Positions 1,861 through 40,848 of a DNA stretch of 43,784 nt are shown one piece after another. A program made the translations under genes and the position numbers. The stretch is taken from the IMG/VR virus record IMGVR_UViG_3300042946_001496. One strand, written 5' to 3'. Each line of letters begins with the position of its first letter. The first letter of the stretch is position 1. Source of the stretch: a virus. Taxonomy: Duplodnaviria; Heunggongvirae; Uroviricota; Caudoviricetes. A model generated the notes under the pieces. That model was not told the origin of the DNA. It saw only the letters and a list, made by a program, of their open reading frames with translations, and did no database searches.

Positions 1861-1962
1861 GTGAAATATTGCCGGAGTGCTCGGACGTGAAATGCTATTC
1901 TTTTCCCAGCATATGATATACTCTGACAAATTCTTACAAAATTCCGTTTGGTGGTACGCTGG

Positions 1963-2090
1963 GGAGGTGAGCGACTACCTTCTTAGTTGGTCCGGTATGA
2001 CGCATGATTCAAGTTGTGCGTTGAAAGTTGGGACAAAAAGCCGATAAGTAAGGGTACACAGGGTTCCCCAAGCCCTACAGATCCCTGAAT
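1963..2090 (+). ncRNA. Candidate structured RNA (ORF-less cassette)
   Basis: Follows promoter 1955; no ORF; stems GTCC(1990)/GGAC(2031), ACGCA(2000)/TGCGT(2017), CAGGG/CCCTG. Confidence 0.35.
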
Positions 2091-2091
2091 T

Positions 2092-2474
2092 GTAAGCTAT
2101 ACAAAACCCAATTTAATTTAAACGAACTAGAGGTCAAAGTCCGGTTTTAAATGTGGTTAATGCTAGTTTCTTCACCACAAGGTCTTTAATACAACAAGGA
2201 AAAGGAATGAAACCTGGAGATAGCATTTTTGAAGACATCATTTCTCTCTTTGTAATTGTTTTCACTCTTTGTCAACCTAGCATAGCAATTTTGTGTGTTA
2301 ACACCTTGTTTGGACTCGATATTCAATATACGCCAGCTAACTACATATCAGCGGCGATTTTAATCTTCATCCCAATTGGAAATAACATGATTTACACCAC
2401 CAAACCATCACGGTTCCCAAATTGAAGCCTTAAGTAAGCTATACAAAACCCAATTTAATTTAAACGAACTAGAG
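2092..2474 (+). repeat. Perfect 41-bp direct repeat (2092-2132 and 2434-2474)
   Basis: GTAAGCTATACAAAACCCAATTTAATTTAAACGAACTAGAG twice, flanking the 2207 ORF. Confidence 0.9.
2207..2425 (+). CDS. Small hydrophobic (probable membrane) protein
   Basis: ATG 2207 preceded by AAGGAAAAGGA; two hydrophobic stretches (IISLFVIVFTLC..., YISAAILIFIPIG). Confidence 0.65.
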   Translation: MKPGDSIFEDIISLFVIVFTLCQPSIAILCVNTLFGLDIQYTPANYISAAILIFIPIGNNMIYTTKPSRFPN

Positions 2475-2483
2475 TGAAACCCG

Positions 2484-2723
2484 ATGAAATATATCATTGT
2501 TGCTGATGAAGGTTTTGAAAAAGCCATTTTGTTTGATGAACTGTTGAGTCACAAAATGGTAGCAGGTTTAACACCTGTGGTTTCTGCTGGGTTTTGTAGT
2601 CTTATTGTTGACAACTTCCAACAATCAACTGTTCAAGTATGGGGAGAAAGTGTTACCCTTAAATTGAAGTCTCGCATCACCGATGCTGCATTAATTCTTG
2701 ATGCGGTAAATTCAAGCCTTTAA
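2484..2723 (+). CDS. Hypothetical protein
   Basis: ORF track; follows second 41-bp direct repeat. Confidence 0.7.
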   Translation: MKYIIVADEGFEKAILFDELLSHKMVAGLTPVVSAGFCSLIVDNFQQSTVQVWGESVTLKLKSRITDAALILDAVNSSL

Positions 2724-2747
2724 CCTTTACAAGCAAAAGCTACAAAC

Positions 2748-2978
2748 ATGACTAAGAAAGAACTGCTTGAGCTTTTGAAGGATGTGCCGGATGATGGTTT
2801 GATTGTTGTTCATGGACATTCTGATGGTGGTGGTTATAATGATTGTTTTGATGTAGAGGAAAAAACTATTGCCCGCACTGTTCCTTCTGGACACGCTTGG
2901 AATTGGAGAGGACAATACGAAGAACCTTGGAAAGATACCAAACCAGAAGATATCATTAAGGCATATGTAATTACTTGA
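2748..2978 (+). CDS. Hypothetical protein (acidic)
   Basis: ORF track, co-oriented and closely spaced. Confidence 0.7.
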   Translation: MTKKELLELLKDVPDDGLIVVHGHSDGGGYNDCFDVEEKTIARTVPSGHAWNWRGQYEEPWKDTKPEDIIKAYVIT

Positions 2979-3112
2979 CTTCCATGCAGAGTGTGGTAGA
3001 CTAAGAAAACAAGGAGACAAACAATGACAATTAACGAATATATGAGTGTCTCTAGACTTAATTAATCTAGCCTATGCTTAAGCGGATTGATTATCCCGCC
3101 GTGCATGACACT

Positions 3113-3156
3113 AAACCCAGGACTAGACTAAAGATTCTAGTCCTGGGTTTTTTTCT
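3113..3156 (+). terminator. Intrinsic terminator
   Basis: AACCCAGGACTAGA-loop-TCTAGTCCTGGGTT followed by T-run. Confidence 0.85.
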
Positions 3157-3318
3157 GCTCTTATCCCTAAACTTAACTTATTAATGCCTGAAAATATATC
3201 TTACCTTGATAATATATTAACAATAATAATATATTGTAAGTCTTTAAGTCTAGCAGTTGGTGGTACGCTAGTAGGGTGTGACGGAATGAGTTCCAACAAA
3301 AACACGAGGGTTAAAAAC

Positions 3319-3621
3319 ATGGCTAAGGCTGCTAAGGTTGATGTTCAGGCTGGTCAGGTGGGTCGTAAGGTCGGTCAGAAGAGTGTGGACGTTGAGACGT
3401 TCATCAAGACGCTTGTCAATGTCCACCGTAAGGGTGGAACGCAGACGATGGTTGCGGAGACGCTTGGCATTACGCCAGCGGCTGTTAGTCTCCGCATCAA
3501 GTATCTTCGAGATGCGGGTGTGAAGGGTCTGCCGGAGTTCGATAATCGTGGTGGTAACACCGCTGGTAAGGTTGTTGAGCGTGCTAAGGCTGCTCTTAAG
3601 GCTATGGGCATCAAGGGTTGA
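3319..3621 (+). CDS. Winged-HTH DNA-binding protein, paralog 1 (most divergent)
   Basis: ATG 3319 after GAGGG; QTMVAETLGITPAAVSLRIKYLRDAG resembles BirA-type/HTH_11 HTH. Confidence 0.8.
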   Translation: MAKAAKVDVQAGQVGRKVGQKSVDVETFIKTLVNVHRKGGTQTMVAETLGITPAAVSLRIKYLRDAGVKGLPEFDNRGGNTAGKVVERAKAALKAMGIKG

Positions 3622-3715
3622 ACTTGAAGCCTAAACTTGCTGGGGGTAGGGTTTAATCGCCCCACCCCCAGCATTTTTTTTAACTTACCACTCCGGTCTG
3701 GTGGTACGCTGTATG

Positions 3716-4035
3716 GGTGTGAGGAAGTAAGCGACTCTGGGCAACATAAGCACCATAAAGTCAGTAGTTCGTCTTTAGTCCTCATAGGTGATGCGTACTC
3801 AATTGTAAGTCTGACGTACGGTTTCCTTTAGCCCTTGGTGGCTACTTTACTCTTCGGAGTAATGAAGTTAATGACTTACTAAAGGGCTAGTGTATTAAGA
3901 ACCTTGTGGTGAAGAAACTAGCATTAACCACATTTAAAACCATCCTTTAAGGTACGCAAATAAATTCAATAAGATAAAATAAAGATACCAGAAACGGATG
4001 AAGGGTGGGTTAGAGTAAAATCTAGCCCACCCTTT
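3716..4035 (+). ncRNA. Candidate structured RNA of about 300 nt containing the 41-nt antisense element
   Basis: Between promoter 3705 and terminator near 4000-4042; no convincing ORF; TGAGGA/TCCTCA, CGTAC/GTACG, TAGCCCTT/AAGGGCTA, TTACTC-TTCG-GAGTAA. Confidence 0.55.
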
Positions 4036-4093
4036 TGTTTTTTCTCTTGAAAAAGAAAAGTTTTAAGCTATAATAAATAAAGCTACGATTAAT

Positions 4094-4167
4094 GCCCCTA
4101 TCGTCTAACGGTTTTAGGATAACAAACTTTCACTTTGTAGATCGGAGTTCGATTCTCCGTAGGGGTA
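4094..4167 (+). tRNA. trnE: tRNA-Glu(TTC)
   Basis: Acceptor GCCCCTA/TAGGGGT, anticodon arm ACAAA-CTTTCAC-TTTGT, T arm CGGAG-TTCGATT-CTCCG; CCA not encoded; TTGAAA-N16-TATAAT at 4047-4074. Confidence 0.92.
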
Positions 4168-4249
4168 TTTTTTAGTTTTAAATCTGAGTTTTTTACACTA
4201 ATTTAAAGCATGAAGACATGTTTTAAATGTGGTGAAACAAAAGATTCCC

Positions 4250-4276
4250 AGCGTACCACCAACCAACAACAGTAAA
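4250..4276 (-). promoter_or_regulatory. Single inverted copy of the cassette promoter
   Basis: AGCGTACCACCAACC at 4250-4264 is the reverse complement of GGTTGGTGGTACGCT. Confidence 0.75.
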
Positions 4277-4395
4277 TAAAAAAAGCCTAATTAAGCAGCA
4301 CAAGTTTTAAAAAGAAACTTACTACTGTCAGTTGGTGGTACGCTGGTGGGGTGTGTGAGACGGACAACAAACAACCCCCCAGTAAGGAGTCAGTT

Positions 4396-4644
4396 ATGGC
4401 TGGTCGTTCTAGTGTCGATATGAAGACTTTCCTTGGTAAGGTCGTTGAGGCTTACCACAATGGTCACAATCAGTCGTGGATTGCGGCTGAGTTGGGTGTG
4501 AGTGCAGCCGCAGTTAGTCTGCGGATCAGCGGACTGCGTAAGAAGGGAGTTAAGCTCCCGGAGTTGGTGAGCGGTAGGGGTTCGGTTAACACCGTTGAGG
4601 ATGCAAATAACATCCTCGCTGATCTCGGTTTTGATGCTGAGTGA
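4396..4644 (+). CDS. Winged-HTH protein, paralog 2
   Basis: ATG 4396 after AAGGAG; NQSWIAAELGVSAAAVSLRISGLRKKG. Confidence 0.88.
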   Translation: MAGRSSVDMKTFLGKVVEAYHNGHNQSWIAAELGVSAAAVSLRISGLRKKGVKLPELVSGRGSVNTVEDANNILADLGFDAE

Positions 4645-4765
4645 GCTTAGCGTTAAGCCAACTGGTAAGGGGGAGGTAACACTCCCCCTTACCTTTTTTT
4701 ATACCTACTATCCTTAACTTAACTAACTAAAACTTATTTAAATTACATTGCTTTGGTGGTACGCT

Positions 4766-4794
4766 GTTAATATATTATCAGCCAATATATTAAC
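4766..4794. promoter_or_regulatory. Palindromic operator-like or mini-hairpin element, copy 1 (others at 5445-5473 and 6119-6147)
   Basis: GTTAATATATT-N7-AATATATTAAC immediately after a promoter and before a second promoter. Confidence 0.6.
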
Positions 4795-4891
4795 AACGCA
4801 AAAATATTAATGCGACTACACGTTTGGTGGTACGCTGGATAACTAGTCCCCATTTTGTCCCCATTTCACCCTTTGTTAAGGAGTGTTAATT

Positions 4892-5341
4892 ATGGATAGC
4901 CGAGATTTTGCTCGTAAGATGGGCGATTGGTACAAAAGCATCGACAAGGTTGCTTTCACCGCCACTGTTAGTTACAATAATTGGGACAATGATGATAACG
5001 AGGTTGAGGAAACCTTTACTGTTCCTTTCAAGTACACGGTTTGCAGTCTTTGCAACGGTGTTGGAACTCACGTTAATCCCAGCGTTGATAGTAACGGTTT
5101 GACTAGTGAAGATTTTGCCGAGGATGATGATTTCAGGGAAAGTTACTTTAGTGGTGCTTACGATATGCCTTGCAATAAGTGTCATGGTAAGGGACTAACA
5201 CCTGAATATGATGAAACTCGTGCTAGTCCTGAGATTAAGAAAAAGATGACATCTTACCTAAAGTATCGTAAAGATGTTGCTGAAGATATGGTTAACGATG
5301 CTTACACTCGTCGTATGGAAAATGGTGGTTATGGTTACTAA
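4892..5341 (+). CDS. Protein with DnaJ-type CxxCxGxG zinc-finger motifs
   Basis: ATG 4892 after AAGGAG; CSLCNGVG and CNKCHGKG. Confidence 0.75.
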   Translation: MDSRDFARKMGDWYKSIDKVAFTATVSYNNWDNDDNEVEETFTVPFKYTVCSLCNGVGTHVNPSVDSNGLTSEDFAEDDDFRESYFSGAYDMPCNKCHGKGLTPEYDETRASPEIKKKMTSYLKYRKDVAEDMVNDAYTRRMENGGYGY

Positions 5342-5521
5342 CCACATTAACTAAAACTAAACAGAAAGGAAGGGCTAACAACCCTTCCTTTTTTTTACAA
5401 TAATATCTTAACTTATTTAAATTACATTGCTTTGGTGGTACGCTGATAATATATTATCAGCAAATATATTAACAAACATGTATTAATTCTTAAGCGTCGG
5501 TTCTGGTGGTACGCTGGAACA

Positions 5522-5642
5522 GTGGGAGTTCAACCCCGTGGTAATCGGTCCTAACAGACCAAGCAATACCACAAACTTGAACTGTGCCTAGATCTTGTTC
5601 CTCCGTGGGACTTTAGGCGAGAAAAAACGGAGGCTAATTTTT
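5522..5642 (+). ncRNA. Candidate structured RNA with 3' H-type pseudoknot
   Basis: AGTTCAA/TTGAACT, GTGGTA/TACCAC, GGTC/GACC; interleaved GCCTAG(5586)/TTAGGC(5613) and CCTCCGT(5600)/ACGGAGG(5627); T-tract follows. Confidence 0.55.
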
Positions 5643-5723
5643 TTTTCTTAACAGTTCGGTTTGGTGGTACGCTGTGGTGGTGTAAGGCAACGAACGATAA
5701 AACCTCCAATAAGGAACGATAAC

Positions 5724-5981
5724 ATGGGTCGCCCATCTGGTAAGAATGCGGTTTCGATGAAGACTTTCCTTGGTAAGGTCGTTGAGGCTTACCACAATGG
5801 TCACAATCAGTCGTGGATTGCGGCTGAGTTGGGGGTGAGTGCAGCCGCAGTTAGTCTGCGGATCAGTTCCCTTCGTAAGAAGGGAGTTAAGCTCCCGGAG
5901 TTGGTGAGCGGTAGGGGTTCGGTTAACACCGTTGAGGATGCGAATAACATCCTCGCTGATCTCGGTTTTGACGCTGAGTGA
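5724..5981 (+). CDS. Winged-HTH protein, paralog 3
   Basis: ATG 5724 after AAGGAA; near-identical to paralog 2 from MKTFLGK onward. Confidence 0.88.
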   Translation: MGRPSGKNAVSMKTFLGKVVEAYHNGHNQSWIAAELGVSAAAVSLRISSLRKKGVKLPELVSGRGSVNTVEDANNILADLGFDAE

Positions 5982-6194
5982 GCTTAGCGTTAAGCCAACT
6001 GGTAAGGGGGAGGTAAAACTCCCCCTTACCTTTTTTTATACCTACTATCCTTAACTTAACTAAAACTTAACTAACTAAACTTAATTTATTTAACTAAAGA
6101 TTGCTTTGGTGGTACGCTGTTAATATATTATCAACCAATATATTAACACCTAAAATATATTATTGAAAATCATTTCTGGTGGTACGCTGGGAAG

Positions 6195-6362
6195 GTGTCG
6201 AGGACCGACGTCATTCATTTCTTTGAGTGCGATCGGCAAGATACAGCGGCTGGTTCGCTGGTATATTAGAAAAAGTCTATTTAATTAAAAGAACGAAGAA
6301 TAGTAGATAAAAGTAGATAAATGGGTAAGGGAGACTATAGGATGCTGTAGTCTCCCTTACTT
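6195..6362 (+). ncRNA. Candidate sRNA family A, copy 1
   Basis: ORF-less cassette; GTGTCGAG..TTGAGTG..CGGCAAGAT..CAGCGG-CTGGT-TCGCTG; long terminator TAAGGGAGACTATAG/CTGTAGTCTCCCTTA. Confidence 0.6.
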
Positions 6363-6443
6363 TTTTACTTAACACCGATCTGGTGGTACGCTGGGGGTGT
6401 GTAAGGCAACGAACAGTAAACCCCAAAATCAAGGAACATTAAC

Positions 6444-6692
6444 ATGGCTGGTCGCTCTAGTGTCGATATGAAGACTTTCCTCAGCAAGGTTGTTGAGGCT
6501 TACCACAACGGTCACAATCAATCGTGGATTGCGGCTGAGTTGGGTGTCTCCCCTGCCGCTGTTAGCCTGCGGCTTAGTGGACTGCGTAAGAAGGGTGTTA
6601 GGGTGCCGGAGTTGGTGAGCGGTAGGGGTGGAAGTAACACCGTTGAGGATGCGAATAACATCCTCGCTGATCTTGGTTTTGACGCTGAGTGA
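6444..6692 (+). CDS. Winged-HTH protein, paralog 4
   Basis: NQSWIAAELGVSPAAVSLRLSGLRKKG; AAGGAA upstream. Confidence 0.88.
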   Translation: MAGRSSVDMKTFLSKVVEAYHNGHNQSWIAAELGVSPAAVSLRLSGLRKKGVRVPELVSGRGGSNTVEDANNILADLGFDAE

Positions 6693-6901
6693 GCTTAGCG
6701 TTAAGCCAACTGGTAAGGGGGAGGTAACACTCCCCCTTACCTTTTTTTTTAACATACTAACAATTAAAATAAACATAAAATCGTACCTTGGTAGTACGCT
6801 GGACTGAAAAATAACTAACACCTATTAATTTATTAATAAAGTCCAGTTCTGGTGGTACGCTATGGGGGTGTTCTTTAATTTAGCCTCACTGGAGCCTAGT
6901 C

Positions 6902-7099
6902 ATGGCGAAGAAAGTAAGCTTGGCTGAAATGAATCGGATCATCCACGAGCGGGGATTCTTGAAGCCTGAAGAGCGGCTTTTCACAAAGCCTTGTTGTCAT
7001 TGTGGAAACTACGTGAGAGAGCGGGAGGCTCTTTGTCCAACGTGTGTCAAAGAGATCGAAAACGATCAATTCGATGATGAATTGCAAATTCAAGATTGA
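6902..7099 (+). CDS. Small zinc-ribbon protein
   Basis: CCHC...CPTC; GGAG upstream; own promoter and terminator. Confidence 0.75.
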   Translation: MAKKVSLAEMNRIIHERGFLKPEERLFTKPCCHCGNYVREREALCPTCVKEIENDQFDDELQIQD

Positions 7100-7168
7100 A
7101 CTAAGGGGGGAAGTTACTAACCCCCTTAACTTTTTTACTTAACAGCGTTTTGGTGGTACGCTGGTAGG

Positions 7169-7316
7169 GTGTCGAGCAGCAACATCTCACTTTGAGTGGG
7201 GCGGCAAGATCCAGCGGCTGGTTCGCTGGTTATATATAAGGAAAAAATTAAGTAAAAAGTAAATAGTAGATAAATGGGTAAGGGAGACTATAGGACGCTG
7301 TAGTCTCCCTTACTTT
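7169..7316 (+). ncRNA. Candidate sRNA family A, copy 2
   Basis: Same ordered motifs and same long terminator as copy 1. Confidence 0.6.
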
Positions 7317-7354
7317 TTTACTTAACACCTGTTCTGGTGGTACGCTGTGGAGCT

Positions 7355-7491
7355 GTCAACAGTAGTCGTCGCCACTGCCTGAGTTGGAATCGCTAACCAA
7401 ACGTAAGCAGCGTGGACGGCTTCCACATTACACACATTAGCGACCGTAGTGTGCGACTATAGAGCCGGATCGTAAATGGCTCGCTGTTGAC
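7355..7491 (+). ncRNA. Candidate multi-stem RNA with kissing-loop pseudoknot
   Basis: Ends pair (GTCAACAG/CTGTTGAC); TAGTCG/CGACTA; CTGC/GCAG; TTGG/CCAA; CACAC/GTGTG; GAGCC/GGCTC; loop TCGCTAA complementary to loop TTAGCGA. Confidence 0.65.
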
Positions 7492-7564
7492 TTTTTAACT
7501 AACAACAGTTTGGTGGTACGCTAGGAAGGTGTTCGATAGGCTTCTACCTTTCAAGGAGTTAAAC

Positions 7565-7690
7565 ATGGGTTTCACCATGATCATTGGATGGAATATGCCT
7601 GACGGTAGCAGCGAGGCTGCCTACATTGATGGCATTATGAAACAAATCGAGCAGCAAAGACGAAAGCGTAAAAAGCGTCGTAAAAAGTAA
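7565..7690 (+). CDS. 41-aa peptide with very basic C-terminus
   Basis: Read by hand: MGFTMIIGWNMPDGSSEAAYIDGIMKQIEQQRRKRKKRRKK*; AAGGAG upstream; fills one cassette. Confidence 0.7.
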   Translation: MGFTMIIGWNMPDGSSEAAYIDGIMKQIEQQRRKRKKRRKK

Positions 7691-7803
7691 AACTAAAGGG
7701 GGAAGTTACTAACCCCTTAACTTTTTAACTAACAACCAGTTTGGTGGTACGCTATGGTGGCGTAAGGTAACGAACAACAACCCTCCAATTAAGGAACAGC
7801 AAC

Positions 7804-8052
7804 ATGGCTGGTCGCTCTAGTGTCGATATGCGTGTTTTTCTCGCCAAGGTCGTCGAAGCCCATAAGAAGGGCATGAATCAATCGTGGATCGCCAATGAAC
7901 TTGGCGTGACTCCTGCCGCTGTTAGCCTGCGGCTTAGTGGACTGCGTAAGAAGGGTGTTAGGGTGCCGGAGTTGGTTTCTGGTCGAGGCGGTAGTAATAC
8001 CGCTGAAGACGCAAATAACATTCTGGCTGATCTCGGTTTTGACACCGAGTGA
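7804..8052 (+). CDS. Winged-HTH protein, paralog 5
   Basis: NQSWIANELGVTPAAVSLRLSGLRKKG. Confidence 0.88.
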   Translation: MAGRSSVDMRVFLAKVVEAHKKGMNQSWIANELGVTPAAVSLRLSGLRKKGVRVPELVSGRGGSNTAEDANNILADLGFDTE

Positions 8053-8141
8053 ATGCCAGATTAAAAAGTAAGTTAAGGGGGGACTAACACTCCCCCCTTA
8101 ACTCTTTTACTAACAATAAACTCTGGTGGTACGCTGATGAA

Positions 8142-8245
8142 TTGTCCGCAGCGGCTGGTCTGCTGTTAAAAGAATTATTTAAATATTTCAAAATGTATTA
8201 ATAATTCTGGACAGGTTAAAGGGGGAGGTTACTAACCCCTTAACT
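8142..8245 (+). ncRNA. Candidate sRNA family A, copy 3 (short form)
   Basis: TGTCC(8143)/GGACA(8209) enclosing CAGCGG-CTGGT-CTGCTG and AGAATTATT/AATAATTCT. Confidence 0.5.
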
Positions 8246-8336
8246 CTTTTACTAACAATAAACTCTGGTGGTACGCTGTGGTGTTGTAAGTGAACGATTG
8301 ATTAGGCTTCCCGTTCACCTTCTTTAAGGATAACAA

Positions 8337-8474
8337 ATGTATGAAATAACTAGCGTTGACACTGGTAAAACCATTGTCATGACTCGGAGCGAGGCTGAAC
8401 AAATGTTCGGCAAAAATGAGTTTAAAGAGATGCTGGCGGGAAGTTTACCGCACCTAATAGTAGTTAAACTCTGA
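8337..8474 (+). CDS. 45-aa hypothetical protein
   Basis: Read by hand: MYEITSVDTGKTIVMTRSEAEQMFGKNEFKEMLAGSLPHLIVVKL*; AAGGA upstream. Confidence 0.7.
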   Translation: MYEITSVDTGKTIVMTRSEAEQMFGKNEFKEMLAGSLPHLIVVKL

Positions 8475-8573
8475 GGTTATTAAGGGGGACTAACCGTCCC
8501 TCTTAACTCTTTAACTTAACACACGGTTTGGTGGTACGCTGTTTGTGTGCCGGACCTTAAAAAGAGGATTAAG

Positions 8574-8843
8574 ATGATTTTCACCGCACAACAAGCTAGG
8601 GATAATAGCATTCTTAAAGCCACCTTGGATAAGATTTACGAAAAGATCAAAATCGTCAGCAAAGACAAAAATGATCTTACTATTGTTTTTGGTGAAAATC
8701 CCGATTTTGAATACTGTGATGCTTATCGCAATGAAGAAGACATCAAAGAAAATCTTGAAAAGGCTGGCTATGAGGTTCGTTGGGATTACACCACTCCCCT
8801 CGGCATCCCTACACTCTATATCGATTGGCGTTTTCCTAACTAA
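8574..8843 (+). CDS. Hypothetical protein
   Basis: ATG 8574 after AGAGGA, in frame with track ORF 8547..8843. Confidence 0.75.
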   Translation: MIFTAQQARDNSILKATLDKIYEKIKIVSKDKNDLTIVFGENPDFEYCDAYRNEEDIKENLEKAGYEVRWDYTTPLGIPTLYIDWRFPN

Positions 8844-8938
8844 AGAAGGGGATTAAATATCCCTAACTTTATACTTAACGACCTGTTGGTGGTACGCTGT
8901 GGTGGTGTAAGTTAAACCCTCAAACAAGAAAGAATATC

Positions 8939-9172
8939 ATGAATAACGACTGCTGTTGGCACTCCAGCTGGAAGAAGAACCACCCGGAACCCGTTGCCGC
9001 CCCTTGCGTTTATGATCTTGATTTCATTTTCAAGGCGATGGCTAACAAAACAAAGATTACAATTCAAGGGGTCACCGGAATTATCAGTGGTATCGAAACA
9101 ACGAGTGCGGACAATGGATACAGATTGAGTTTCTGCGATAGAGCCGGTTGGGTTGTAGTCGTTGCAAAGTAA
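8939..9172 (+). CDS. Hypothetical protein, 'YDLDFIF' paralog 1
   Basis: Shares YDLDFIF(K/N)AMA...G.I(S/T)GIE with 11576..11893. Confidence 0.75.
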   Translation: MNNDCCWHSSWKKNHPEPVAAPCVYDLDFIFKAMANKTKITIQGVTGIISGIETTSADNGYRLSFCDRAGWVVVVAK

Positions 9173-9263
9173 ACAGCTAAAGGGGGAAGTTACTAACCCC
9201 TTAACTTTCTTCTTGCAACAAGTTTGGTGGTACGCTATAGTGGTGTAACCCCGGAGAAAAGAT

Positions 9264-9530
9264 ATGAATGACATTCGTAGAGGCAGGGTTGTTACTGAAG
9301 AGTATCTTCAGTACGTTGATAGCATAGTCAATCAAGACAATAGTCTTGAAGACTTGGTGTCAGAAGTTATTTGCGGCAATCCTACAGACGTTGCCGCAAA
9401 GATTATCATTCAGTCTATGCGAAGGCTAGCAGAACTGGAACGTCCACGAAACCCGCTCGGAAGAACTGCTACATTTGAACAAAATGCCAATAGGGCAATT
9501 GACGAAACTTGCGAAAAGCATTTTGGGTGA
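9264..9530 (+). CDS. Hypothetical protein
   Basis: GGAG upstream; fills one cassette. Confidence 0.75.
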   Translation: MNDIRRGRVVTEEYLQYVDSIVNQDNSLEDLVSEVICGNPTDVAAKIIIQSMRRLAELERPRNPLGRTATFEQNANRAIDETCEKHFG

Positions 9531-9603
9531 AACTAAAGGGGGAAGTTACTAACCCCTTAAGTTTTTACTAACAAATAAGTTGGTGGTACGCTGGATGACT
9601 ATC

Positions 9604-9828
9604 ATGGAAATCAAACCCATCAACGACAATAACAGTCAATTTGACTTGGTAGAGTTGCGGTCAAGTCACTATTCGGCACCACAGCAAACTCCTCACTGTA
9701 AGATTCATGGAGCTATGAACTGTGTGGCTGTTCATGCTACAGGGAAATTGTGGCGTTGCATACAGAGTAATCAATTAAAGGATTGTCGGGCTGGGTGTGA
9801 GGAGTTAATAACAACACAGAACAAATGA
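9604..9828 (+). CDS. Cys/His-rich hypothetical protein, probably near-leaderless
   Basis: ATG 9604 lies 11 nt after the -10 hexamer at 9587-9592; CKIHGAMNC...WRC...CRAGC. Confidence 0.65.
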   Translation: MEIKPINDNNSQFDLVELRSSHYSAPQQTPHCKIHGAMNCVAVHATGKLWRCIQSNQLKDCRAGCEELITTQNK

Positions 9829-9881
9829 AGGGCTAACCCCTAGTTTTTAACTAACACCAAGTTTGGTGGTACGCTGTGGGG

Positions 9882-10170
9882 GTGTTCGATAAGTGTTCCT
9901 AAACCACAAATGTTTAGGGGTGTCAAAGGCAAAACCTTTGCAGTAGAAGCGGCTTGTTAGGTCGTGGATGTAAAGAGAAAACTTTGGCTTGAACCGGTAA
10001 TTCCCTGTAAGAATGGGTTAATCACCGGCAACCCCGGAGTAAGATAGCGGGGTTTTCTAAGTAAGAAGAAGGCAAGAGTAGTCGCAAAGGCGTACTCGTA
10101 GCCGATGGCGGGCAAGATCAGCACCTTTTGCTTCAATGCGGGTGTCGTCACGTTCGATTCGTGATAATCT
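9882..10170 (+). ncRNA. Candidate structured RNA of about 290 nt ending in a T-loop hairpin
   Basis: No credible ORF; successive hairpins CCTAAAC/GTTTAGG, AAAGG/CCTTT, CCGGT/ACCGG, AACCCCG/CGGGGTT, GAGTA/TACTC, GCACC/GGTGT; TCACG-TTCGATT-CGTGA at 10148-10164. Confidence 0.6.
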
Positions 10171-10229
10171 TACTTACAATACATTTGTGGTACGCTCTGC
10201 CAGTGTAAGCCACACACAAAGGAGAAGCC

Positions 10230-10562
10230 ATGAGCTACGAAGGCGTTGAAGAGTTCATTTGTAATAAGGGTCATTACTGGACTCTGGATGCCGGTGTCCT
10301 CCATTACGACTTCCTTGATAACATGAGGATAATGGAAAAGGTTGCTTGTCCGCATTGTAAGGAAACCCCAGCCTACACTTGTAGTGTTGATGAAACCAAT
10401 GGTTACGATCCTAACCTTCCATGTACCTTTCATGGACCGAAAATTGAAATCGGTTATGAGGATATTGAGATGCAGGATCACCACGGAAATAAATACTTCG
10501 TTAAGTTGGAACGATACAAACCGGACAATTCCACAAATCGGTGGAGAAAAGAAGGGGACTAA
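10230..10562 (+). CDS. Cys/His-containing hypothetical protein
   Basis: AAGGAG upstream; CNKGH, CPHC. Confidence 0.75.
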   Translation: MSYEGVEEFICNKGHYWTLDAGVLHYDFLDNMRIMEKVACPHCKETPAYTCSVDETNGYDPNLPCTFHGPKIEIGYEDIEMQDHHGNKYFVKLERYKPDNSTNRWRKEGD

Positions 10563-10657
10563 ACATCCCCTTACTTTTTAACTTAACAACCAGTTTGGTG
10601 GTACGCTGTGGTGGCGTAAGGAACGATAAACAACAACCTCCAATAAGGAACGATAAC

Positions 10658-10948
10658 ATGGGTCGCCCCTCTGGCAAAGATGCAATTTCGATGCAGACGT
10701 TTCTTGGTAAAGTGGTGGAAGCGTATCGCAACCACCACAATCAATCGTGGATCGCACGGGAGTTGGGTATCACTCCTGCCGCTGTTAGCCTGCGGCTTAG
10801 TGGGTTGCGTAAGAAGGGCGTGAAGGTGCCGGAACTGGTTTCTGGTCGAGGTGGAAGTAACACCGTTGAGGATGCGAATAACATCCTCGCTGATCTTGGG
10901 TTCGATGGCAACGATGAAGCGGATCATTATGCTGGTCCGATCGGGTGA
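10658..10948 (+). CDS. Winged-HTH protein, paralog 6
   Basis: ATG 10658; NQSWIARELGITPAAVSLRLSGLRKKG; C-terminal extension. Confidence 0.88.
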   Translation: MGRPSGKDAISMQTFLGKVVEAYRNHHNQSWIARELGITPAAVSLRLSGLRKKGVKVPELVSGRGGSNTVEDANNILADLGFDGNDEADHYAGPIG

Positions 10949-11046
10949 GTAAAATGGGGGGAGGTTACTAACCCCCGTTTTTTACTTTGATACGCTGTTA
11001 GTGGTACGCTAGCATGGTGTGAGAACCACCTTCAAGGAGGAACGGT

Positions 11047-11133
11047 ATGCAAGTCAACATGACATTCGTGGAACAGATAGTCTGCCTTGTTGCTCTGATA
11101 GCCGGGATTGTGTTTGCTGCGTTGTTTGGTTGA
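11047..11133 (+). CDS. 28-aa hydrophobic single-helix peptide
   Basis: Read by hand: MQVNMTFVEQIVCLVALIAGIVFAALFG*; AAGGAGG upstream; fills one cassette. Confidence 0.7.
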   Translation: MQVNMTFVEQIVCLVALIAGIVFAALFG

Positions 11134-11232
11134 AAAATAGGGGGGGAGGTTACTAACCCCTTTAACTAACACTTTGAGTTGGTGGTACGCTATGGTGGCG
11201 TAAGTGACAATCAACCCTTCAAGGAGTTCAAG

Positions 11233-11472
11233 ATGAAGACTCGCAAGACTGTCAACCTTGTCAAGTTCATGCAGACCATCGTCAAGGCTGCTGCAAACGG
11301 TCACAACCAGAGCGACGTTGCTCGTTCGCTGGGGGTTACTCCCGCCGCTGTTACCTTGCGGCTTCAGAGTCTCCGCAAGAAGGGCGTTAAGGTTCCTAAC
11401 ATCAATGCCAATGCCGGTTGGGTTGATTGCAAGATGACTGCTAGTGAGCGGCTGGCTGCTGCCTACCGTTGA
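11233..11472 (+). CDS. Winged-HTH protein, paralog 7
   Basis: ATG 11233 after AAGGAG; NQSDVARSLGVTPAAVTLRLQSLRKKG. Confidence 0.85.
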   Translation: MKTRKTVNLVKFMQTIVKAAANGHNQSDVARSLGVTPAAVTLRLQSLRKKGVKVPNINANAGWVDCKMTASERLAAAYR

Positions 11473-11575
11473 GTTAAGGTTAAGGGGGGAGGTTACTAAC
11501 CCCCTGTTCATTTAACCAAGAGTGGTTTGGTGGTACGCTGTGGTGGTGTAAGCCTCCAACAACATAAGGTGTGAA

Positions 11576-11893
11576 ATGACTGACGATGCCATCGGATTTA
11601 ACGGACGTCACAGCGTTGCGGTTCCTTGCGTTACGGAGCGTGTCGGCGTAGGTCTCACCCAAGGCGACCCGTTCGATGAGGAGGAAACGAGGATCTACGA
11701 TCTTGACTTCATCTTCAACGCAATGGCTAAGTCGTTGGACGTGGTTGTTGGTATGAAAAGGGGGAACATTACAGGCATCGAAAAGTTGGGGGGCGATGAA
11801 TATCGTCTTTGCCTTCAATGGCACGATAAACGTTTTTCTTACGGTTCCGATGCTCGTGATTATGCAACCATCACCGCAAGGCAACTAAAGTGA
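11576..11893 (+). CDS. Hypothetical protein, 'YDLDFIF' paralog 2
   Basis: Similarity to 8939..9172. Confidence 0.75.
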   Translation: MTDDAIGFNGRHSVAVPCVTERVGVGLTQGDPFDEEETRIYDLDFIFNAMAKSLDVVVGMKRGNITGIEKLGGDEYRLCLQWHDKRFSYGSDARDYATITARQLK

Positions 11894-11994
11894 AGTTAAA
11901 GGGGGGACTAAAAATCCCTCCTTAACTCTTTTACTTAACAACAAGTTTGGTGGTACGCTGTGAGGGTGTAAGACCTTAAATAAAGGAGACAGCA

Positions 11995-12210
11995 ATGCGA
12001 ATGTCCTTCAAGAGTCTTGAGTCGTTCGCTCGTGAGCGTGGCTACACTGTTGAGCGGAGGGGCAGGATGATTGAGTGGTGTCGCAATGAGGATCACTCAA
12101 TGATCGGTGTAGTATACAGTGTTCACGAAGCCTACAGCGAGATCAAACAGGATTGGGATAGATGGATAGTAAGGATCCACAACCATATACTCCACGGCAC
12201 GACCGGCTAG
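11995..12210 (+). CDS. Hypothetical protein
   Basis: AAGGAG upstream; last ORF-bearing cassette. Confidence 0.72.
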   Translation: MRMSFKSLESFARERGYTVERRGRMIEWCRNEDHSMIGVVYSVHEAYSEIKQDWDRWIVRIHNHILHGTTG

Positions 12211-12629
12211 TATCCATCTATTCATAACAAAGGGGGAAGTTACTAACCCCCTGTTCATTTAACACAAGGATAGTTTGGTGGTACGCTATAGAGTTGCAAC
12301 AAAGCCTTTAACAAAAAGATTTAACAAAATTAAAAATTAAAAAAATAATGTAAAAAAACTATAAAAAAAATAGTAGTAGGGGAGGGGGTTCCACCGCCAT
12401 TACACTCTTTTTCTTTTGTTCTTTTCGTTTTTTTCTGTAGGGTTTTAGATTTTTCAAAATTAAAAGCCCAACAACTTTATAAAAATCCCCATAACCTTAA
12501 AATATTAAAAAACCATTTTAGAAAAAAATGCGGCGGAAAAAATTTTCAATATACAGTAGGGTTTTTAAATAAAAAAGACTTTGGAAAAATCCAAAGTCTT
12601 TTAAAGGAGAAAAAACAAAAGAAAAGATT

Positions 12630-13395: not shown

Positions 13396-15126
13396 ATGGG
13401 AACAGAAATTCACAGAATAAGACAGCAGGAGTTTAATTTCCCTTTTGTCAACGACAATATAAAAGATAAAGGGGCAAAAGTTATAAGAGAGCAGACAAAA
13501 AATGCCCTAGAGCATAATGGTCGTTGTGCTTACGTCGTTCCAGCTTTAATACCCGGTGACGAAAACACCTATTTGCTGTGGGCTAGCGATGCTGATAAGT
13601 TCGATGATGTGGAAAGTCAAAAGAAAGCACATTTTCTTGGTCAAAGTTTAAGGCAAAACAATATTGCGAGTGGAGTTCAAGGATCGGGAATACCTTCATC
13701 AATGATAATGCTAGCTCGCGATAAGGGCGAGTGCATGATATGCAGTATTGATGGCAACAAAGGATTTGTTACAAAAAGCTACATACAAGAAGGTGTTGGG
13801 GCTGAAGCTGGCACATATGCTCAGCGTGTAGAAGAAGTAACATCGGTCTCTGTTCCAAATTGCAATTTTACATATCTTGAACTTTTCAAAAAGTTTATTG
13901 GAAAGCCTGACTTTAATAAAGAAGAAAACGAAATAAATGTTTTGTTTTTATATAAAGTCATCAGAACTCCAAATGACGCAATATCTCTTAGTGGCTATAA
14001 AGACAAAATTATTACTTGCGGAACAATAAATACGTTTCATGAAATTTGTGAACCTGGTCTAGGTTTAGATGAAAGATTTAAACTATATTACTCGGTCACT
14101 AATCAAGGTGTTGGAGAATATATTATAAATGAAACAGAAAATTCTCCAGAAACAGTTCAATTTGTTGCACTATCTGACCATTGGTGTCCTGGCAGGAACA
14201 CAAACAAGATTAACATTGGAATAACACAAGAAAAGTACTTTTCTGAGTTTGGTAGAGACAAAATAGACTGTAGGGATTTTGATGTTGTGTATGAATATAA
14301 AGATACTTTTGATTCAAACATCAAAATTCATTGTTCAGTTGATTTGCAAATCCAGATGTATCCAGGCTTTTTAAGAACTACAGCGAGAGGTCAAGGCATT
14401 TCTAGACTTTGCAAGCTGAAGGACGGTCATGCTTCTCACAATTCAATGGAAAGCACCGAAAGGTTATTTCTATCTTACAAATTTCTTGAGAAAACTTTTT
14501 CTGGTTCTTCTGCAGAAAGAGCTTTTAAAGATCCTGTATTATGGTTTAACAATAGCAGAATTAATTCTTTCACAAGTATTCTTGGTCTAAACTGTAATGT
14601 TAACGTTTCTAATCCTTTTAAAGATCATGAATCTTGGAAAGAAGAATATACTTGGATATACGATAAGATAGAGGAAGAGAGTATAAAAGGAAGATCTCCT
14701 TTTGTAAAGTTTTTTATTGATATCAAAGACATTATTAAAATAGAAAGAAATGGCGAAGAAATTAAAAATCAAAATATTTTTAATTTCTTGGGATCTTATG
14801 ATGCATTTTTTTCAATGACAAGTGAGGAATCAGTAAGAACTAATTCGACTTTAATAAAAGTTGTTTTGGAAGCTTTTTCAAAGCAAAAAGAATTTAGTGA
14901 TTTCGTTGAGCTTCATAAGAAATATTTCCCCTATGATAAGAGTGATGAAATAAAAGGAGATTTAATCAAGACTTCTATTTCTAAAACACGATCAAGGGTG
15001 GACGTTTGGATTGAGGAATCCCTTTCAAATGCTTCGAAGCCCGCCAAGCCCGCTCCTGGGGTTGGGGCTAGTGGTAGTAACTCTGGTGAAGTATCAAACA
15101 AAAGAAAGAAGAAAGAAAAGGTTTAA
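13396..15126 (+). CDS. Large protein with putative N-terminal GHKL (Hsp90/MORC-like) ATPase domain
   Basis: ATG 13396 after AAAGGA; REQTKNALEH (N-box-like), SGVQGSGI (G2-box-like); G1 box DxGxG not evident. Confidence 0.5.
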   Translation: MGTEIHRIRQQEFNFPFVNDNIKDKGAKVIREQTKNALEHNGRCAYVVPALIPGDENTYLLWASDADKFDDVESQKKAHFLGQSLRQNNIASGVQGSGIPSSMIMLARDKGECMICSIDGNKGFVTKSYIQEGVGAEAGTYAQRVEEVTSVSVPNCNFTYLELFKKFIGKPDFNKEENEINVLFLYKVIRTPNDAISLSGYKDKIITCGTINTFHEICEPGLGLDERFKLYYSVTNQGVGEYIINETENSPETVQFVALSDHWCPGRNTNKINIGITQEKYFSEFGRDKIDCRDFDVVYEYKDTFDSNIKIHCSVDLQIQMYPGFLRTTARGQGISRLCKLKDGHASHNSMESTERLFLSYKFLEKTFSGSSAERAFKDPVLWFNNSRINSFTSILGLNCNVNVSNPFKDHESWKEEYTWIYDKIEEESIKGRSPFVKFFIDIKDIIKIERNGEEIKNQNIFNFLGSYDAFFSMTSEESVRTNSTLIKVVLEAFSKQKEFSDFVELHKKYFPYDKSDEIKGDLIKTSISKTRSRVDVWIEESLSNASKPAKPAPGVGASGSNSGEVSNKRKKKEKV

Positions 15127-31241: not shown

Positions 31242-31897
31242 TCAAACCTCCAATTTTCATAATTTATAGTCAACTTTACCTGGTTCGTGGTGTATTTTAA
31301 ATTACTTTCAAGTTTTTTGATGTCATTTTTGTTGTTTTCAGTGACTTTTTTGTCCATAAAGTCTTTAAAAAAGAAAGGTATCTTGTTTTTTACAGTTAAT
31401 TCACTTTTAATTTCAACAAAAGTCTTATTTTCATCAGAAATTGGAGTAATTTTTATGTTTTTTTCATAAAAAATTAAATTTTTTTGAATTTCTTTTAATT
31501 TTATATCTATTTTTAAGGTGTTTCTATCAAAATTTACAGTTTGAACAAATGGAATGACCATTTTTCCAAGAAAACTATCGTTTTTTTCAATTTTAAAGTC
31601 TAAAATCCCACTAATTTTGTAATCTTTTACTCTTAAAACTCTTCTTGGAACATCAATATTGAAGTTTTCCCAAGATTTTTCAATCAAAGTAGCATCATTT
31701 TCCCTCACGATCCCTTCTAGTGAGTCTTTTTTAGACAAATTTTTAACAACGCTAAGGTATGGCTTATCAACAACAAAAGAAATTTGATCAATACTATTAG
31801 ATTCGTGATCCACAAACCCATAAGTATAGCAAAAATATAAAAAAATTGATAAAAAACCAATTAAACAAGCAATTATTAGTAAAAATTTTTTAATCAT
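31238..31897 (-). CDS. Membrane-anchored hypothetical protein
   Basis: N-terminal hydrophobic helix; C-terminus loosely START/SRPBCC-like (weak). Confidence 0.65.
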
Positions 31898-40786: not shown

Positions 40787-40848
40787 TTATCTTATCTCAA
40801 AACAAACACCAGTTCAATATATAATTTATCGACTGATTGGAATCTAAA

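Follow-up and report, generated by a model that had tools for sequence, protein, structure and literature searches.

What is the function of a short sequence that recurs 32 times on one strand within a single island of a phage genome, and what would read it? In the window (the whole 43.8-kb stretch of DNA analysed), a scan of both strands for TGGTGGTACGCT at up to one mismatch gives 33 matches, 32 on the plus and one on the minus strand, against an expectation of 0.03 in shuffled sequence. All are confined to 1949-12287: neither TGGTGGTACGCT nor the shorter core TGGTACRYT occurs in the remaining 31 kb of the window. The plus-strand array of about 10.3 kb noticed in a preliminary description is thus real, and the window-wide motif scan proposed there places every copy inside it. 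Twenty-nine of the plus-strand copies are exact (variants at 6789, 10185 and 10999), leaving just 3 mismatches over 384 positions of the 12-mer; because the cassettes of the window and of the relative L008 differ by about 22%, this argues for selection on the 12-mer itself. The array also stands apart in composition, with a GC content of 0.445 vs. 0.32 elsewhere in the window and a GC3 of 0.49 in cassette ORFs vs. 0.21 in other genes.

The reading that we favor, with a probability of about 70%, is that the array is a dense island of some 28 self-contained transcription units in an uncultured freshwater giant phage, analogous to the PeSL cassettes of T4-type phages and read by a sigma-70-type bacterial polymerase. 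The figure of about 32 cassettes given previously holds for motif copies but not for transcription units, since four copies (4825, 5504, 6177, 6850) are second members of tandem pairs, 61-71 nt downstream of the first.

Anatomy of the repeat unit

A composite element some 70 nt long appears to open each unit. Its hairpin, with a G/C stem and a T-rich tail, would terminate the preceding unit; next come a weak -35-like TTTACT or TTAACT, an invariant TGG-TACGCT that can be taken as an extended -10 element (TGnTAnnnT), and, about 6 nt past the -10, a conserved GGTGT as the probable transcription start. Promoter and terminator denote such predicted elements throughout.

Within the 70 nt upstream, 24/32 copies have a stable hairpin (dG <= -8 kcal/mol), compared with 20/100 control sites, and terminator-like sites number 32 vs. 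12.7 in shuffles. The earlier statement that a hairpin precedes most copies is therefore correct for any stable hairpin but generous for the GGGG/CCC type, found at 16/32. The -35-like element was likewise found, but TTTACT or TTAACT stands 16-18 nt upstream of TACGCT in only 15/32 copies; at least four of six matches to TTGACA occur in 21/32 (background about 13%), and T is present at -35 in 29/32. Positions -18 to -7 are near-invariant across the array. Downstream, RTGGTGGYGTAAG had been described as following many copies; it does so exactly after six and with at most two mismatches after nine, while a shorter GTGT is present at a fixed distance in 16 of the 32. Protein-coding units mostly have a Shine-Dalgarno-led ORF beginning 17-60 nt after the motif.

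Contents of the array

As previously proposed, the composite of hairpin and promoter flanks single genes or ORF-less segments. All units are on the plus strand; seven encode paralogous HTH proteins, about 13 encode mini-proteins, and eight lack an ORF, one of these with a tRNA-Glu. All cassette proteins are orphans, and the immediate-early takeover or anti-defence role suggested earlier is for them a candidate role only. The cargo would comprise orphan mini-proteins, an HTH regulator family, the tRNA and several small structured RNAs.

The HTH family, already counted as seven-membered, is confirmed (the most divergent copy shares 37-42% identity with the others). Paralog 1 (3286-3621, 111 aa) follows the promoter of unit 2 (3258-3698), with AATATATT half-sites immediately upstream at 3208-3221. 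Promoter, paralog and terminator succeed one another in units 4 (4333-4753; paralog 2, 4396-4644; terminator 4664-4693), 9 (5662-6106; paralog 3, 5724-5981; terminator 6001-6030), 12 (6381-6788; paralog 4, 6444-6692; terminator 6712-6741) and 18 (7742-8123; paralog 5, 7804-8052; terminator 8071-8103); paralogs 6 (10658-10948) and 7 (11233-11472) lie within units 26-31. Three tandem promoter pairs surround AATATATT palindromes: those of unit 5/6 (4754-5432; promoters 4754 and 4825, palindromes 4766-4794), unit 7/8 (5433-5661; 5433 and 5504, palindromes 5445-5473) and unit 10/11 (6107-6380; 6107 and 6177, palindromes 6119-6147). In a fourth, unit 13/14 (6789-7150), a variant promoter at 6789 (TGGTAGTACGCT) and a promoter at 6850 surround a different, non-AATATATT inverted repeat. 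The predicted link is that the seven HTH regulators bind the AATATATT palindromes between tandem promoters, probably as operators.

Unit 1 (1949-3257) has its promoter at 1949-1960, then a long leader, ORFs at 2207-2425 (72 aa, hydrophobic), 2484-2723 and 2748-2978, and a terminator hairpin at 3113-3150; a perfect 39-nt direct repeat (2094-2132 and 2436-2474) flanks the first ORF. Two CxxCxGxG zinc-finger motifs are present in the ORF of unit 5/6 (4883-5341, 152 aa), and a zinc-ribbon-like CxxC pair in that of unit 13/14 (6902-7099, 65 aa). A promoter and a mini-ORF (7565-7690, 41 aa, with a lysine/arginine-rich tail) make up unit 17 (7511-7741). Units 20-24 (8266-9863) are five cassettes with one gene each: 8337-8474 (45 aa), 8571-8843 (90 aa), 8939-9172 (77 aa), 9264-9530 (88 aa) and 9595-9828 (77 aa). 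The start codon of the last nearly coincides with the predicted transcription start. Among the six ORFs of units 26-31 (10185-12275), those other than HTH paralogs are at 10230-10562 (110 aa), 11047-11133 (28 aa, hydrophobic), 11576-11893 (105 aa) and 11995-12210 (71 aa).

Roughly one cassette in four had been suggested to encode an RNA, and a similar fraction of the units, 8/28, are indeed ORF-less, starting at 3699, 5433/5504, 6107/6177, 7151, 7335, 8124, 9864 and 12276, and most are 80-90% conserved in relatives. Unit 3 (3699-4332) combines a promoter, a predicted RNA about 330 nt long that has no ORF, and a terminator (4000-4035) with a second part, in which a sigma-70-consensus promoter, TTGAAA-16-TATAAT (4047-4074), precedes tRNA-Glu(UUC) (4093-4168). 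The lone minus-strand motif copy (4250-4261, exact) is directed at this tRNA, has its own T-rich element upstream, and is kept in L008 and L030. The RNA of unit 7/8 (c8, 5516 to about 5650) is 82-85% conserved in L008 and L014, with no shared reading frame because of a 1-nt indel in this comparison. Unit 10/11 carries c11 (6189-6367; hairpin CAGCGGCTGGTTCGCTG at 6244-6260, terminator 6323-6362), and its paralog c15, in unit 15 (7151-7334), has the same hairpin (7212-7228) and a terminator at 7276-7315. A related hairpin, CAGCGGCTGGTCTGCTG (8149-8165), occurs in the RNA of unit 19 (8124-8265; c19, about 130 nt), found outside the window only in the near-identical strain L058. For c16 (unit 16, 7335-7510), 82-84% conserved in L008 and L014, substitutions keep the fold (P ~0.03-0.05); so do those in c25 (unit 25, 9864-10184, about 300 nt; P = 0.003), whose 5' 170 nt have 80% identity in the L011 lineage, where the promoter variant differs. 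The final promoter, of unit 32 (12276-12610), leads into an AT-rich ORF-less stretch, with a bidirectional terminator at 12573-12602; conserved blocks (about 12390-12410 and 12440-12570) also follow the array in L008, L010, L161 and L004.

Related lineages and the reader of the motif

Lake metagenomes yield at least six related lineages that have GC-enriched, one-strand arrays of about 10 kb with HTH paralogs. Arrays of 16-32 copies in about 10 kb are present in L008/L014, L011/L012, L010, L160/L161 and L004 (identical to G001), and the lineage motifs are TGGTGGTACGCT, CCGGTGGTACGTT, CGGGTGGTACACTATAG, CTGTTCGTGGTACG(C/A)T and TTTTnGGGGTACGGy. In G001, a 181-kb record, 18/20 exact copies fall in one 11-kb stretch and 20/20 are on the same strand. 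Each lineage has its own variant, in which a block of about 25 nt is fixed. This length far exceeds what sigma-70 contacts require.

TGGTAC-R-N-T and GGTGT are common to all lineages except the G001 line, and the distance from GGTGT to the -10 is constant across lineages. Outside G001 (which has no T at -15, and T at -7 in only about half of its copies), every lineage retains TG at -15/-14, T at -12, A at -11 and T at -7, with variation at -9 and -8, as sigma-70-type recognition would predict. Judged from sequence, an extended -10 promoter (TGnTAnnnT) describes the motif better than a T7-type one.

The reader would then be a bacterial-type RNA polymerase with a sigma-70-family factor, be it the primary sigma of the host or one encoded by the phage, or else a holoenzyme that the phage has modified. 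TACGCT agrees with TATAAT at only 3/6 positions, so that a generic sigma-70 scanner misses the array sites. Canonical TTGAAA-N16/17-TATAAT promoters coexist with the motif inside the arrays of three lineages, ahead of tRNA-Glu, so that the motif may belong to a different class, one that needs another factor. These two features, the lineage-fixed block of about 25 nt, and the sigma-70-family factor (with regions 2 and 4) encoded by G001 make the host polymerase doubtful as sole reader.

Another possibility, which we consider unlikely though the best of the alternatives, is that a phage-encoded RNA polymerase working without sigma (single-subunit like those of T7/SP6, or of another phage type, and possibly virion-delivered) uses the motif as its promoter, with each lineage's variant the cognate specificity of its own enzyme, as in T7, T3 and SP6. 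The blocks fixed within and different between lineages, the GC-rich motif restricted to one island of a 30% GC genome, and the second promoter class implied by the canonical sigma-70 promoter would all suit it; long near-identical promoters with lineage-specific variants are common to the T7/T3/SP6 families and the arrays, and the L010 variant ends in ACACTATAG, shared with the SP6 promoter and matching the -8 to +1 segment of SP6/T7 promoters. However, the other lineages lack the TATA melting segment (TGTG instead), the positions kept across lineages are exactly the TG, T-12, A-11 and T-7 of an extended -10, fitting sigma-70 contacts, and a T-rich -35-like element stands at 16-18 nt. PF00940 and PF00623 (T7-type/multisubunit polymerase) had no match in G001, the relative searched for a single-subunit polymerase gene; this counts only weakly against a phage enzyme, the record being 78% complete, the PF00940 control having matched nowhere, and divergent polymerases being liable to escape.

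Could the units instead be made at the RNA level, by a phage or host endoribonuclease cutting one or a few long transcripts at the motif while hairpins shield the 3' ends, on the model of the RNase III sites in T7 early RNA? One-strand copies, hairpins beside a single-stranded-looking conserved sequence, and the lack of a clear U-tract in the hairpins of some lineages (L010, L161), which also tells against the favored reading, would be accommodated, but we think this very improbable: the conserved positions follow DNA promoter geometry (T-rich -35, TG, TAnnnT), tandem copies border palindromic operator-like sites, the single minus-strand copy has a T-rich element upstream, and no long upstream promoter is evident.

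Cassette turnover between relatives

Shuffling of the PeSL kind had been proposed, with identical cassette order in diverged relatives as the contrary outcome. Order is not identical: among L008, L014 and L058, whole cassettes are gained, lost or replaced, and in one case transposed. The backbone runs collinear with that of L008 (about 78% nucleotide identity), which nevertheless lacks units 12, 19, 23-26 and 30, has seven units absent from the window, and carries units 14 and 16 in other positions; further gains and losses separate L014 from L008. Even L058, with 99-100% identity to the window, is without unit 21, and its unit 22 is an 87% version. Homology blocks end inside a repeat unit in 14/17 cases vs. 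31% expected (P = 2e-5), a statistic inflated because alignments run into any conserved repeat.

The same 70 nt recur at intervals of 150-600 nt on one strand, so that homologous recombination between units would delete, insert, replace or move single cassettes. That the repeats are primarily recombination sites (integron-attC-like, serving a site-specific recombinase) or a spreading MITE-like element, their promoter likeness incidental, is scarcely credible: same-strand orphan cassettes split by lineage-specific, conserved, hairpin-forming repeats and exchanged whole among relatives would fit, but the larger ORFs of the window contain no integrase or recombinase domain, the repeat sits at promoter distance upstream of ORFs with a -35, TG and -10 pattern, and homologous recombination suffices for the exchanges.

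Comparison with known systems

PeSL cassettes occur in hyperplastic regions of the T4-type phages RB49/phi1, T4/PST and KVP40/nt-1 (PMC2839356, PMC4122927), and are characterized by a stem-loop just upstream of a promoter, a consensus particular to each lineage, concentration in those regions, and indels that fall at the elements (PMC4122927). The array is alike in each respect: the stem-loop abuts the promoter, with a Shine-Dalgarno sequence and small orphan ORF following; the consensus varies by phage lineage; the elements are concentrated where gene content is most variable; and where close relatives differ by an insertion, deletion, replacement or displacement, the breakpoints lie at the elements. 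It differs in its -10, TACGCT after an invariant TGG rather than near-consensus TATAAT; in fixing about 25 nt, downstream GGTGT included; in forming one contiguous 10-kb island of 32 copies with a distinct GC3; in carrying RNAs instead of ORFs in a quarter of its units; and in its built-in paralogous HTH family with predicted palindromic operators. T4-likeness of the phage itself is not demonstrable from a Gp23 search in the relative G001, where neither Gp23 nor its control, which matched nowhere, was found.

The terminal redundancy of the Bacillus phage SPO1 holds a host-takeover module with many strong promoters and terminators. Like the array it is a cluster of about 10 kb of small early genes (a timing that we infer for the array) of unknown or host-shutoff function; its promoters are consensus host sigma-A, unlike the array motif, and its units mostly multi-gene operons, whereas those of the array are mostly single-cargo. 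We know of no RNA cassettes in the SPO1 module. A further comparison is with the extended -10 (TGn) promoter class, such as the middle/late promoters of Thermus phage P23-45, with TG one base upstream of TAnnnT, as in the array, and a weak or dispensable -35 in both. The array differs from this class in being GC-rich and, within a lineage, invariant at -10 to -8, with an invariant upstream spacer and start region.

If cassettes do recombine through their shared repeats, cargo would turn over fast on a persistent scaffold. What is new here is that the lineages share the array layout and the HTH paralogs, yet each has its own fixed variant of the motif.

A regular island of putative promoter-hairpin cassettes

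The array on the forward strand of the window (1949-12287) is an unusually regular, RNA-rich variant of the promoter-terminator cassettes of promoter-early stem-loop (PeSL) type known from T4-type phages, and forms a conserved island in an uncultured freshwater phage family. With at most one mismatch allowed, its motif, TGGTGGTACGCT, has 33 matches in the 43,784-base window, 32 on the forward strand (29 exact) and one, exact, on the reverse strand (4250-4261); all of them lie within 1949-12287, against 0.03 expected from dinucleotide-preserving shuffles. The 32 forward recurrences in about 10 kb noted in the preliminary description are thus confirmed, and the scan of the full 43.8 kb confines the motif to the array: its core, TGGTACRYT, has no copy in the other 31 kb. 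The number of units, previously put at the same figure, is closer to 28, because four copies stand second in tandem pairs whose members are 61-71 nt apart. Two AATATATT palindromes lie inside each of three pairs; with its AAC extension and one mismatch allowed, this palindrome has 18 matches in the window versus 2.7 expected, mostly inside the array. A literature search with the motif strings returned only unrelated primer sequences.

When the hexamer TACGCT is numbered -12 to -7, positions -18 to -7 are essentially invariant among the 32 forward copies, T occupies -35 in 29, and G, T, G and T occur at the positions numbered +1 to +4 in 22-28. The longer downstream motif RTGGTGGYGTAAG, which had been described as following many copies, is exact in only six. 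Most copies do follow a hairpin: a stable one is found within 70 nt upstream of 24 of 32, compared with 20 of 100 control sites. The GGGGG/CCCCC type first proposed is less general (GGGG/CCC-type stems at 16 copies only), as is the -35-like TTTACT/TTAACT said to be formed by the T-tract, present at a distance of 16-18 nt in 15 of 32 copies. Stem-loop and putative promoter together form one composite element of about 70 nt, with predicted promoter and terminator activity. The 12-mer has only three mismatches in 384 positions despite about 22% divergence of the cassettes, arguing that it is under selection and not merely homogenised. GC content is raised in the array (0.445 versus 0.32), as is GC3 in the cassette ORFs (0.49 versus 0.21 in the other genes of the window).

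Related arrays and occurrence

Relatives carrying arrays were reached through matches to a helix-turn-helix (HTH) family encoded in the cassettes; an exact-pattern scan of IMG/VR gave single chance matches only, and of the 48 loci from a pattern scan of metagenomes, six were real array fragments. The motif is fixed within a lineage and differs from one lineage to the next: TGGTGGTACGCT in the lake-metagenome loci L008/L009, L014 and small fragments (the longer of these have about 20-28 copies); CCGGTGGTACGTT, then GTGGGGGTGT, in L011/L012; CGGGTGGTACACTATAG, then one variable base and GGTGT, in L010; CTGTTCGTGGTACG(C/A)T in L160/L161; and TTTTnGGGGTACGGy in L004, part of the 181-kb IMG/VR record G001, where the 20 exact copies share one strand and 18 of them fall within a single stretch of 11 kb. 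A search of this record for Gp23 (PF07068), as a sign of a T4-like myovirus, gave no match, the control also matching in no genome. The arrays of all lineages are about 10 kb long, lie 2-12 GC points above their flanks and encode several HTH paralogs each.

Transfer RNA genes, mostly for A/U-ending codons (Glu-UUC, Lys-UUU, Leu-UAA, Ile-UAU), are found inside the arrays of the window/L008, L011, L161, L010 and L004 lines (L008 7350-7423; L011 8601-8677; L161 7165-7237; L010 6654-6726 and 8297-8381; L004 3639-3710 and 3929-4002). The arrays of the window, L008, L010, L161 and L004 are closed by a conserved AT-rich non-coding element, kept while the cassette cargo turned over, which in the window directly follows the last array promoter (about 12390-12410 and 12440-12570) and in L004 is duplicated at 14155-14437. 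It contains GCCATTAC and a run ending in AAAAAATGCGGCGG, then a TATA-like box; possible roles are a packaging signal, an origin or a promoter of a second class.

Array DNA is present in lake and freshwater metagenome runs from 22 studies; no RNA runs containing it were listed, and two wastewater cDNA runs share only 6-10% of words. No close relative was found by megablast among 50,697 phage records of isolates. The window, a fragment of an uncultured phage genome, also encodes a virion protein (phrog_1645), an SNF2-type helicase, tail-fibre-like proteins with the major tropism determinant N-terminal (Mtd_N) domain, and tRNAs; one virion protein resembles a T4-like cyanophage structural protein (33-38% identity). 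The Mtd_N domain occurs in two proteins (31894-32298 and 40837-41400). At window positions 41800-43784, a tail-fibre-like protein contains 660 or more residues of a collagen-like (Gly-Thr/Ile/Val-Gln)n repeat, and the end of the window inside it is probably an assembly break.

Cassette turnover

The shuffling of cassettes at the repeats that had been proposed holds in the close relatives L008, L014 and L058, which differ by gain, loss, replacement and displacement of whole cassettes. Between the window and L008 the backbone is collinear, with about 78% nucleotide identity in shared parts; units 12, 19, 23-26 and 30 (numbered by motif copy) and one of the c11/c15 pair of ORF-less cassettes are absent from L008, which in turn has seven units without a counterpart in the window. 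Cassette order is not identical either: units 14 and 16 lie on the opposite side of units 17-18 in L008. Units 14, 22 and 28 match there at the protein level only (31-68% identity). L014 and L008 are closer, at 83-100% identity per cassette, and are separated by one replacement, one extra cassette and one loss; L058 and the window share 99-100% identity in units 16-19 and 24, but L058 lacks unit 21 and has an 87% identical version of unit 22. Homology blocks end inside a repeat unit in 14 of 17 cases, the repeat unit making up 31% of the array (P = 2e-5, a value inflated because alignments extend into any conserved repeat). Beyond these three loci almost no cargo is shared: apart from the HTH genes, only unit 21, the c25 RNA, a portion of the unit-3 RNA and the terminal element of unit 32 were found.

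Protein cargo and a putative second promoter class

Seven units encode HTH paralogs, as first described, of 80-110 aa with a three-helix core. The AlphaFold model (pLDDT about 84 in the core) matches generic HTH repressor domains alone, at E > 0.05, and does not allow assignment to a specific family; no relative was found in bacterial and archaeal genomes, and in metagenomes the family comprises at least 201 clusters, none with a specific name. The palindromes of the tandem pairs may be linked to these proteins. About 13 units encode orphan proteins of 28-152 aa, including two zinc-finger/zinc-ribbon proteins and two hydrophobic mini-proteins, and none of the non-HTH cassette proteins has a significant Pfam or PHROG assignment.

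One ORF-less unit, starting at 3699, would give an RNA of about 330 nt ending at a predicted terminator (4000-4035). Between this terminator and tRNA-Glu(UUC) is a near-consensus sigma-70 promoter, TTGAAA-16-TATAAT (4047-4074). The canonical TTGAAA-N16/17-TATAAT is conserved upstream of tRNA-Glu in the window, L008 (about 7300-7330) and L011 (about 8565-8595); L161 has a TTGAAA-16-TATATT variant (about 7097-7125), which is followed by an array promoter and, directly after that, by the tRNA. Since this canonical promoter sits ahead of tRNA-Glu, two promoter classes coexist in the island. In the strain fragment L030 (about 60-560, aligned to window 3990-4345) a longer, different insert replaces tRNA-Glu between the same flanks; it has tRNA-like ends, is not called by ARAGORN, and could be an intron-containing tRNA.

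ORF-less cassettes

The cassette architecture with interspersed ORF-less RNAs also holds: eight of about 28 units lack an ORF of at least 20 codons with a ribosome-binding site, and several of these are conserved in relatives. Cassettes c8 and c16 (named by unit) have 82-85% conserved counterparts in L008 and L014, the c11/c15 family is also found in L008, L058 and L159, and the first 170 nt of c25 retain 80% identity in the L011 lineage, despite its different promoter variant. Shared reading frames are ruled out by indels of 1, 2, 14 and 15 nt. In a fold test in which the window copy was folded alone, and the substitutions of a relative were compared with randomly placed ones for the number of pairs broken, fewer were broken in c25 (P = 0.003) and c16 (P = 0.03-0.05), and c8 gave no significant signal; with two or three sequences, preservation of the folds of c25 and c16 is suggestive only. 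A 17-nt hairpin, CAGCGGCTGGTYNGCTG, is common to c11, c15 and c19 (6244-6260, 7212-7228 and 8149-8165; 0 expected by chance) and is present in L008, L058 and L159 too. Searches of Rfam at E <= 1 found tRNA only, other matches being far under gathering scores, and searching the other lineages with a covariance model of c25 brought up no additional homologs.

Of the ORF-less RNAs, only that of unit 3 has a long antisense complement within the window: 58 nt (3891-3948) are 91% complementary to the leader of the first gene of unit 1 (2136-2193), both on the forward strand. The antisense segment is kept in L008, where other sequence stands in place of its target; the pairing may therefore be of recent origin. 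A 14-nt core of the pair recurs at 4220-4233. A perfect 39-nt direct repeat (2094-2132 and 2436-2474) brackets the target and a 72-aa hydrophobic ORF (2207-2425), and resembles a scar left when DNA was inserted or duplicated independently of the promoter repeats.

Which polymerase reads the motif?

Extended -10 promoters read by sigma-70-family factors are contacted at TG, T-12, A-11 and T-7 (sigma regions 2.4 and 3.0). In the window, TG at -15/-14, a TAnnnT hexamer, A-11 and T-7 are invariant in all 32 copies; TG, T-12, A-11 and T-7 recur in the L008/L014, L011/L012, L010 and L160/L161 lines, G001 being the exception, while positions -9/-8 vary between lineages (GC, GT, AC, GA/GC) and GGTGT stays at a constant distance from the hexamer. 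This pattern corresponds to the contacts expected of a sigma-70-family factor; from such a promoter, transcription would start 6-8 nt after the hexamer. That the motif copies are promoters of a bacterial-type enzyme has a probability of about 0.7-0.75. Two other promoter readings were tried: a sigma-54-like one (TGGCAC-N5-TTGC) was rejected, the downstream element being mismatched and the spacing off by 3 nt, and an ECF-type one (AAC-N16-CGT) was set aside, as the most conserved bases would fall in the spacer.

Given a bacterial-type enzyme, the factor may be a phage sigma or a phage-modified holoenzyme, a reading that is plausible though short of an even chance, or the host primary sigma, which is somewhat less probable. 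Simple use of the latter is argued against by the hexamer, TACGCT, which matches TATAAT at three of six positions (a consensus scan does not call the array sites), by the roughly 25 nt fixed within each lineage, by the G001 variant, which lacks T-15 and often T-7, and by the coexisting canonical promoter. G001 encodes a 300-aa protein of the sigma-70 family that contains regions 2 and 4 (L007 1132-2034; about 23.3-24.2 kb of G001), of which no homolog was found in the window or the other fetched loci.

A sigma-independent phage polymerase is an unlikely reader. The L010 motif does have a T7/SP6-like look (ACACTATAG), but a TATA melting segment is found in that variant only, the window, L008 and L011 having TGTG at the aligned positions, and the AT-rich TATA at -4 to -1 before a +1 G typical of T7-type promoters is thus not shared across lineages. 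Neither a T7-type (PF00940) nor a multisubunit polymerase was matched in G001, which is 78% complete, although the PF00940 control matched nowhere. Least probable is that the motif copies are not promoters at all.

A more far-reaching model, which we consider rather unlikely, is that the array is an orthogonal early-expression island, in which some 30 promoters would be read only by a lineage-specific phage factor, and dedicated structured small RNAs and tRNAs for A/U-ending codons would prepare the cell for AT-rich later genes. The factor, possibly carried inside the capsid, would be a phage sigma, a polymerase or a protein appropriating the host polymerase, and its specificity would have co-diverged with all promoter copies, giving at least five natural variants.

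Relation to known systems and significance

Integron arrays lie next to a gene for a tyrosine-recombinase integrase and consist of promoterless cassettes, each ending in an attC site. Such an array was rejected here: the larger ORFs of the window contain no recombinase domain, and the repeat, with promoter geometry, lies upstream of each ORF. With PeSL cassettes the array shares the roughly 70-nt composite of a stem-loop immediately upstream of a predicted promoter, the setting in a hyperplastic region with many small orphan genes, and indels, replacements and displacements between close relatives (L008, L014, L058) with breakpoints at the elements, and its cassette turnover matches the published PeSL picture (PMC4122927). 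The PeSL promoter is sigma-70-like and close to TTGACA-N17-TATAAT; in the array, the -35-like element is present in 15 of 32 copies, and the -10 has TG at -15/-14 and keeps T-12, A-11 and T-7, three of the six positions of TATAAT. PeSL features also include early transcription by the host polymerase and the formation of mini-circles; early timing and a takeover or anti-defence role, as first proposed, and a location in a terminal repeat would be conceivable for the array.

PeSL-type modular shuffling would not be confined to T4-like coliphages and vibriophages: its architecture recurs, denser and more regular, in a widespread uncultured freshwater phage group. Between them, the lineages provide a natural set of promoter variants, related to one another yet distinct, which, if read by a phage factor, would be ready-made orthogonal promoter-factor pairs. 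To our knowledge few phage small RNAs are known, and ORF-less cassettes with their own predicted promoter and terminator are good candidates. Because island codons are GC-rich while island tRNAs serve A/U-ending codons, composition suggests that the island may be translated with the host tRNA pool and supply tRNAs for AT-rich later genes; the codon contrast and the array tRNAs together offer a testable picture of translation staging in an AT-rich phage.
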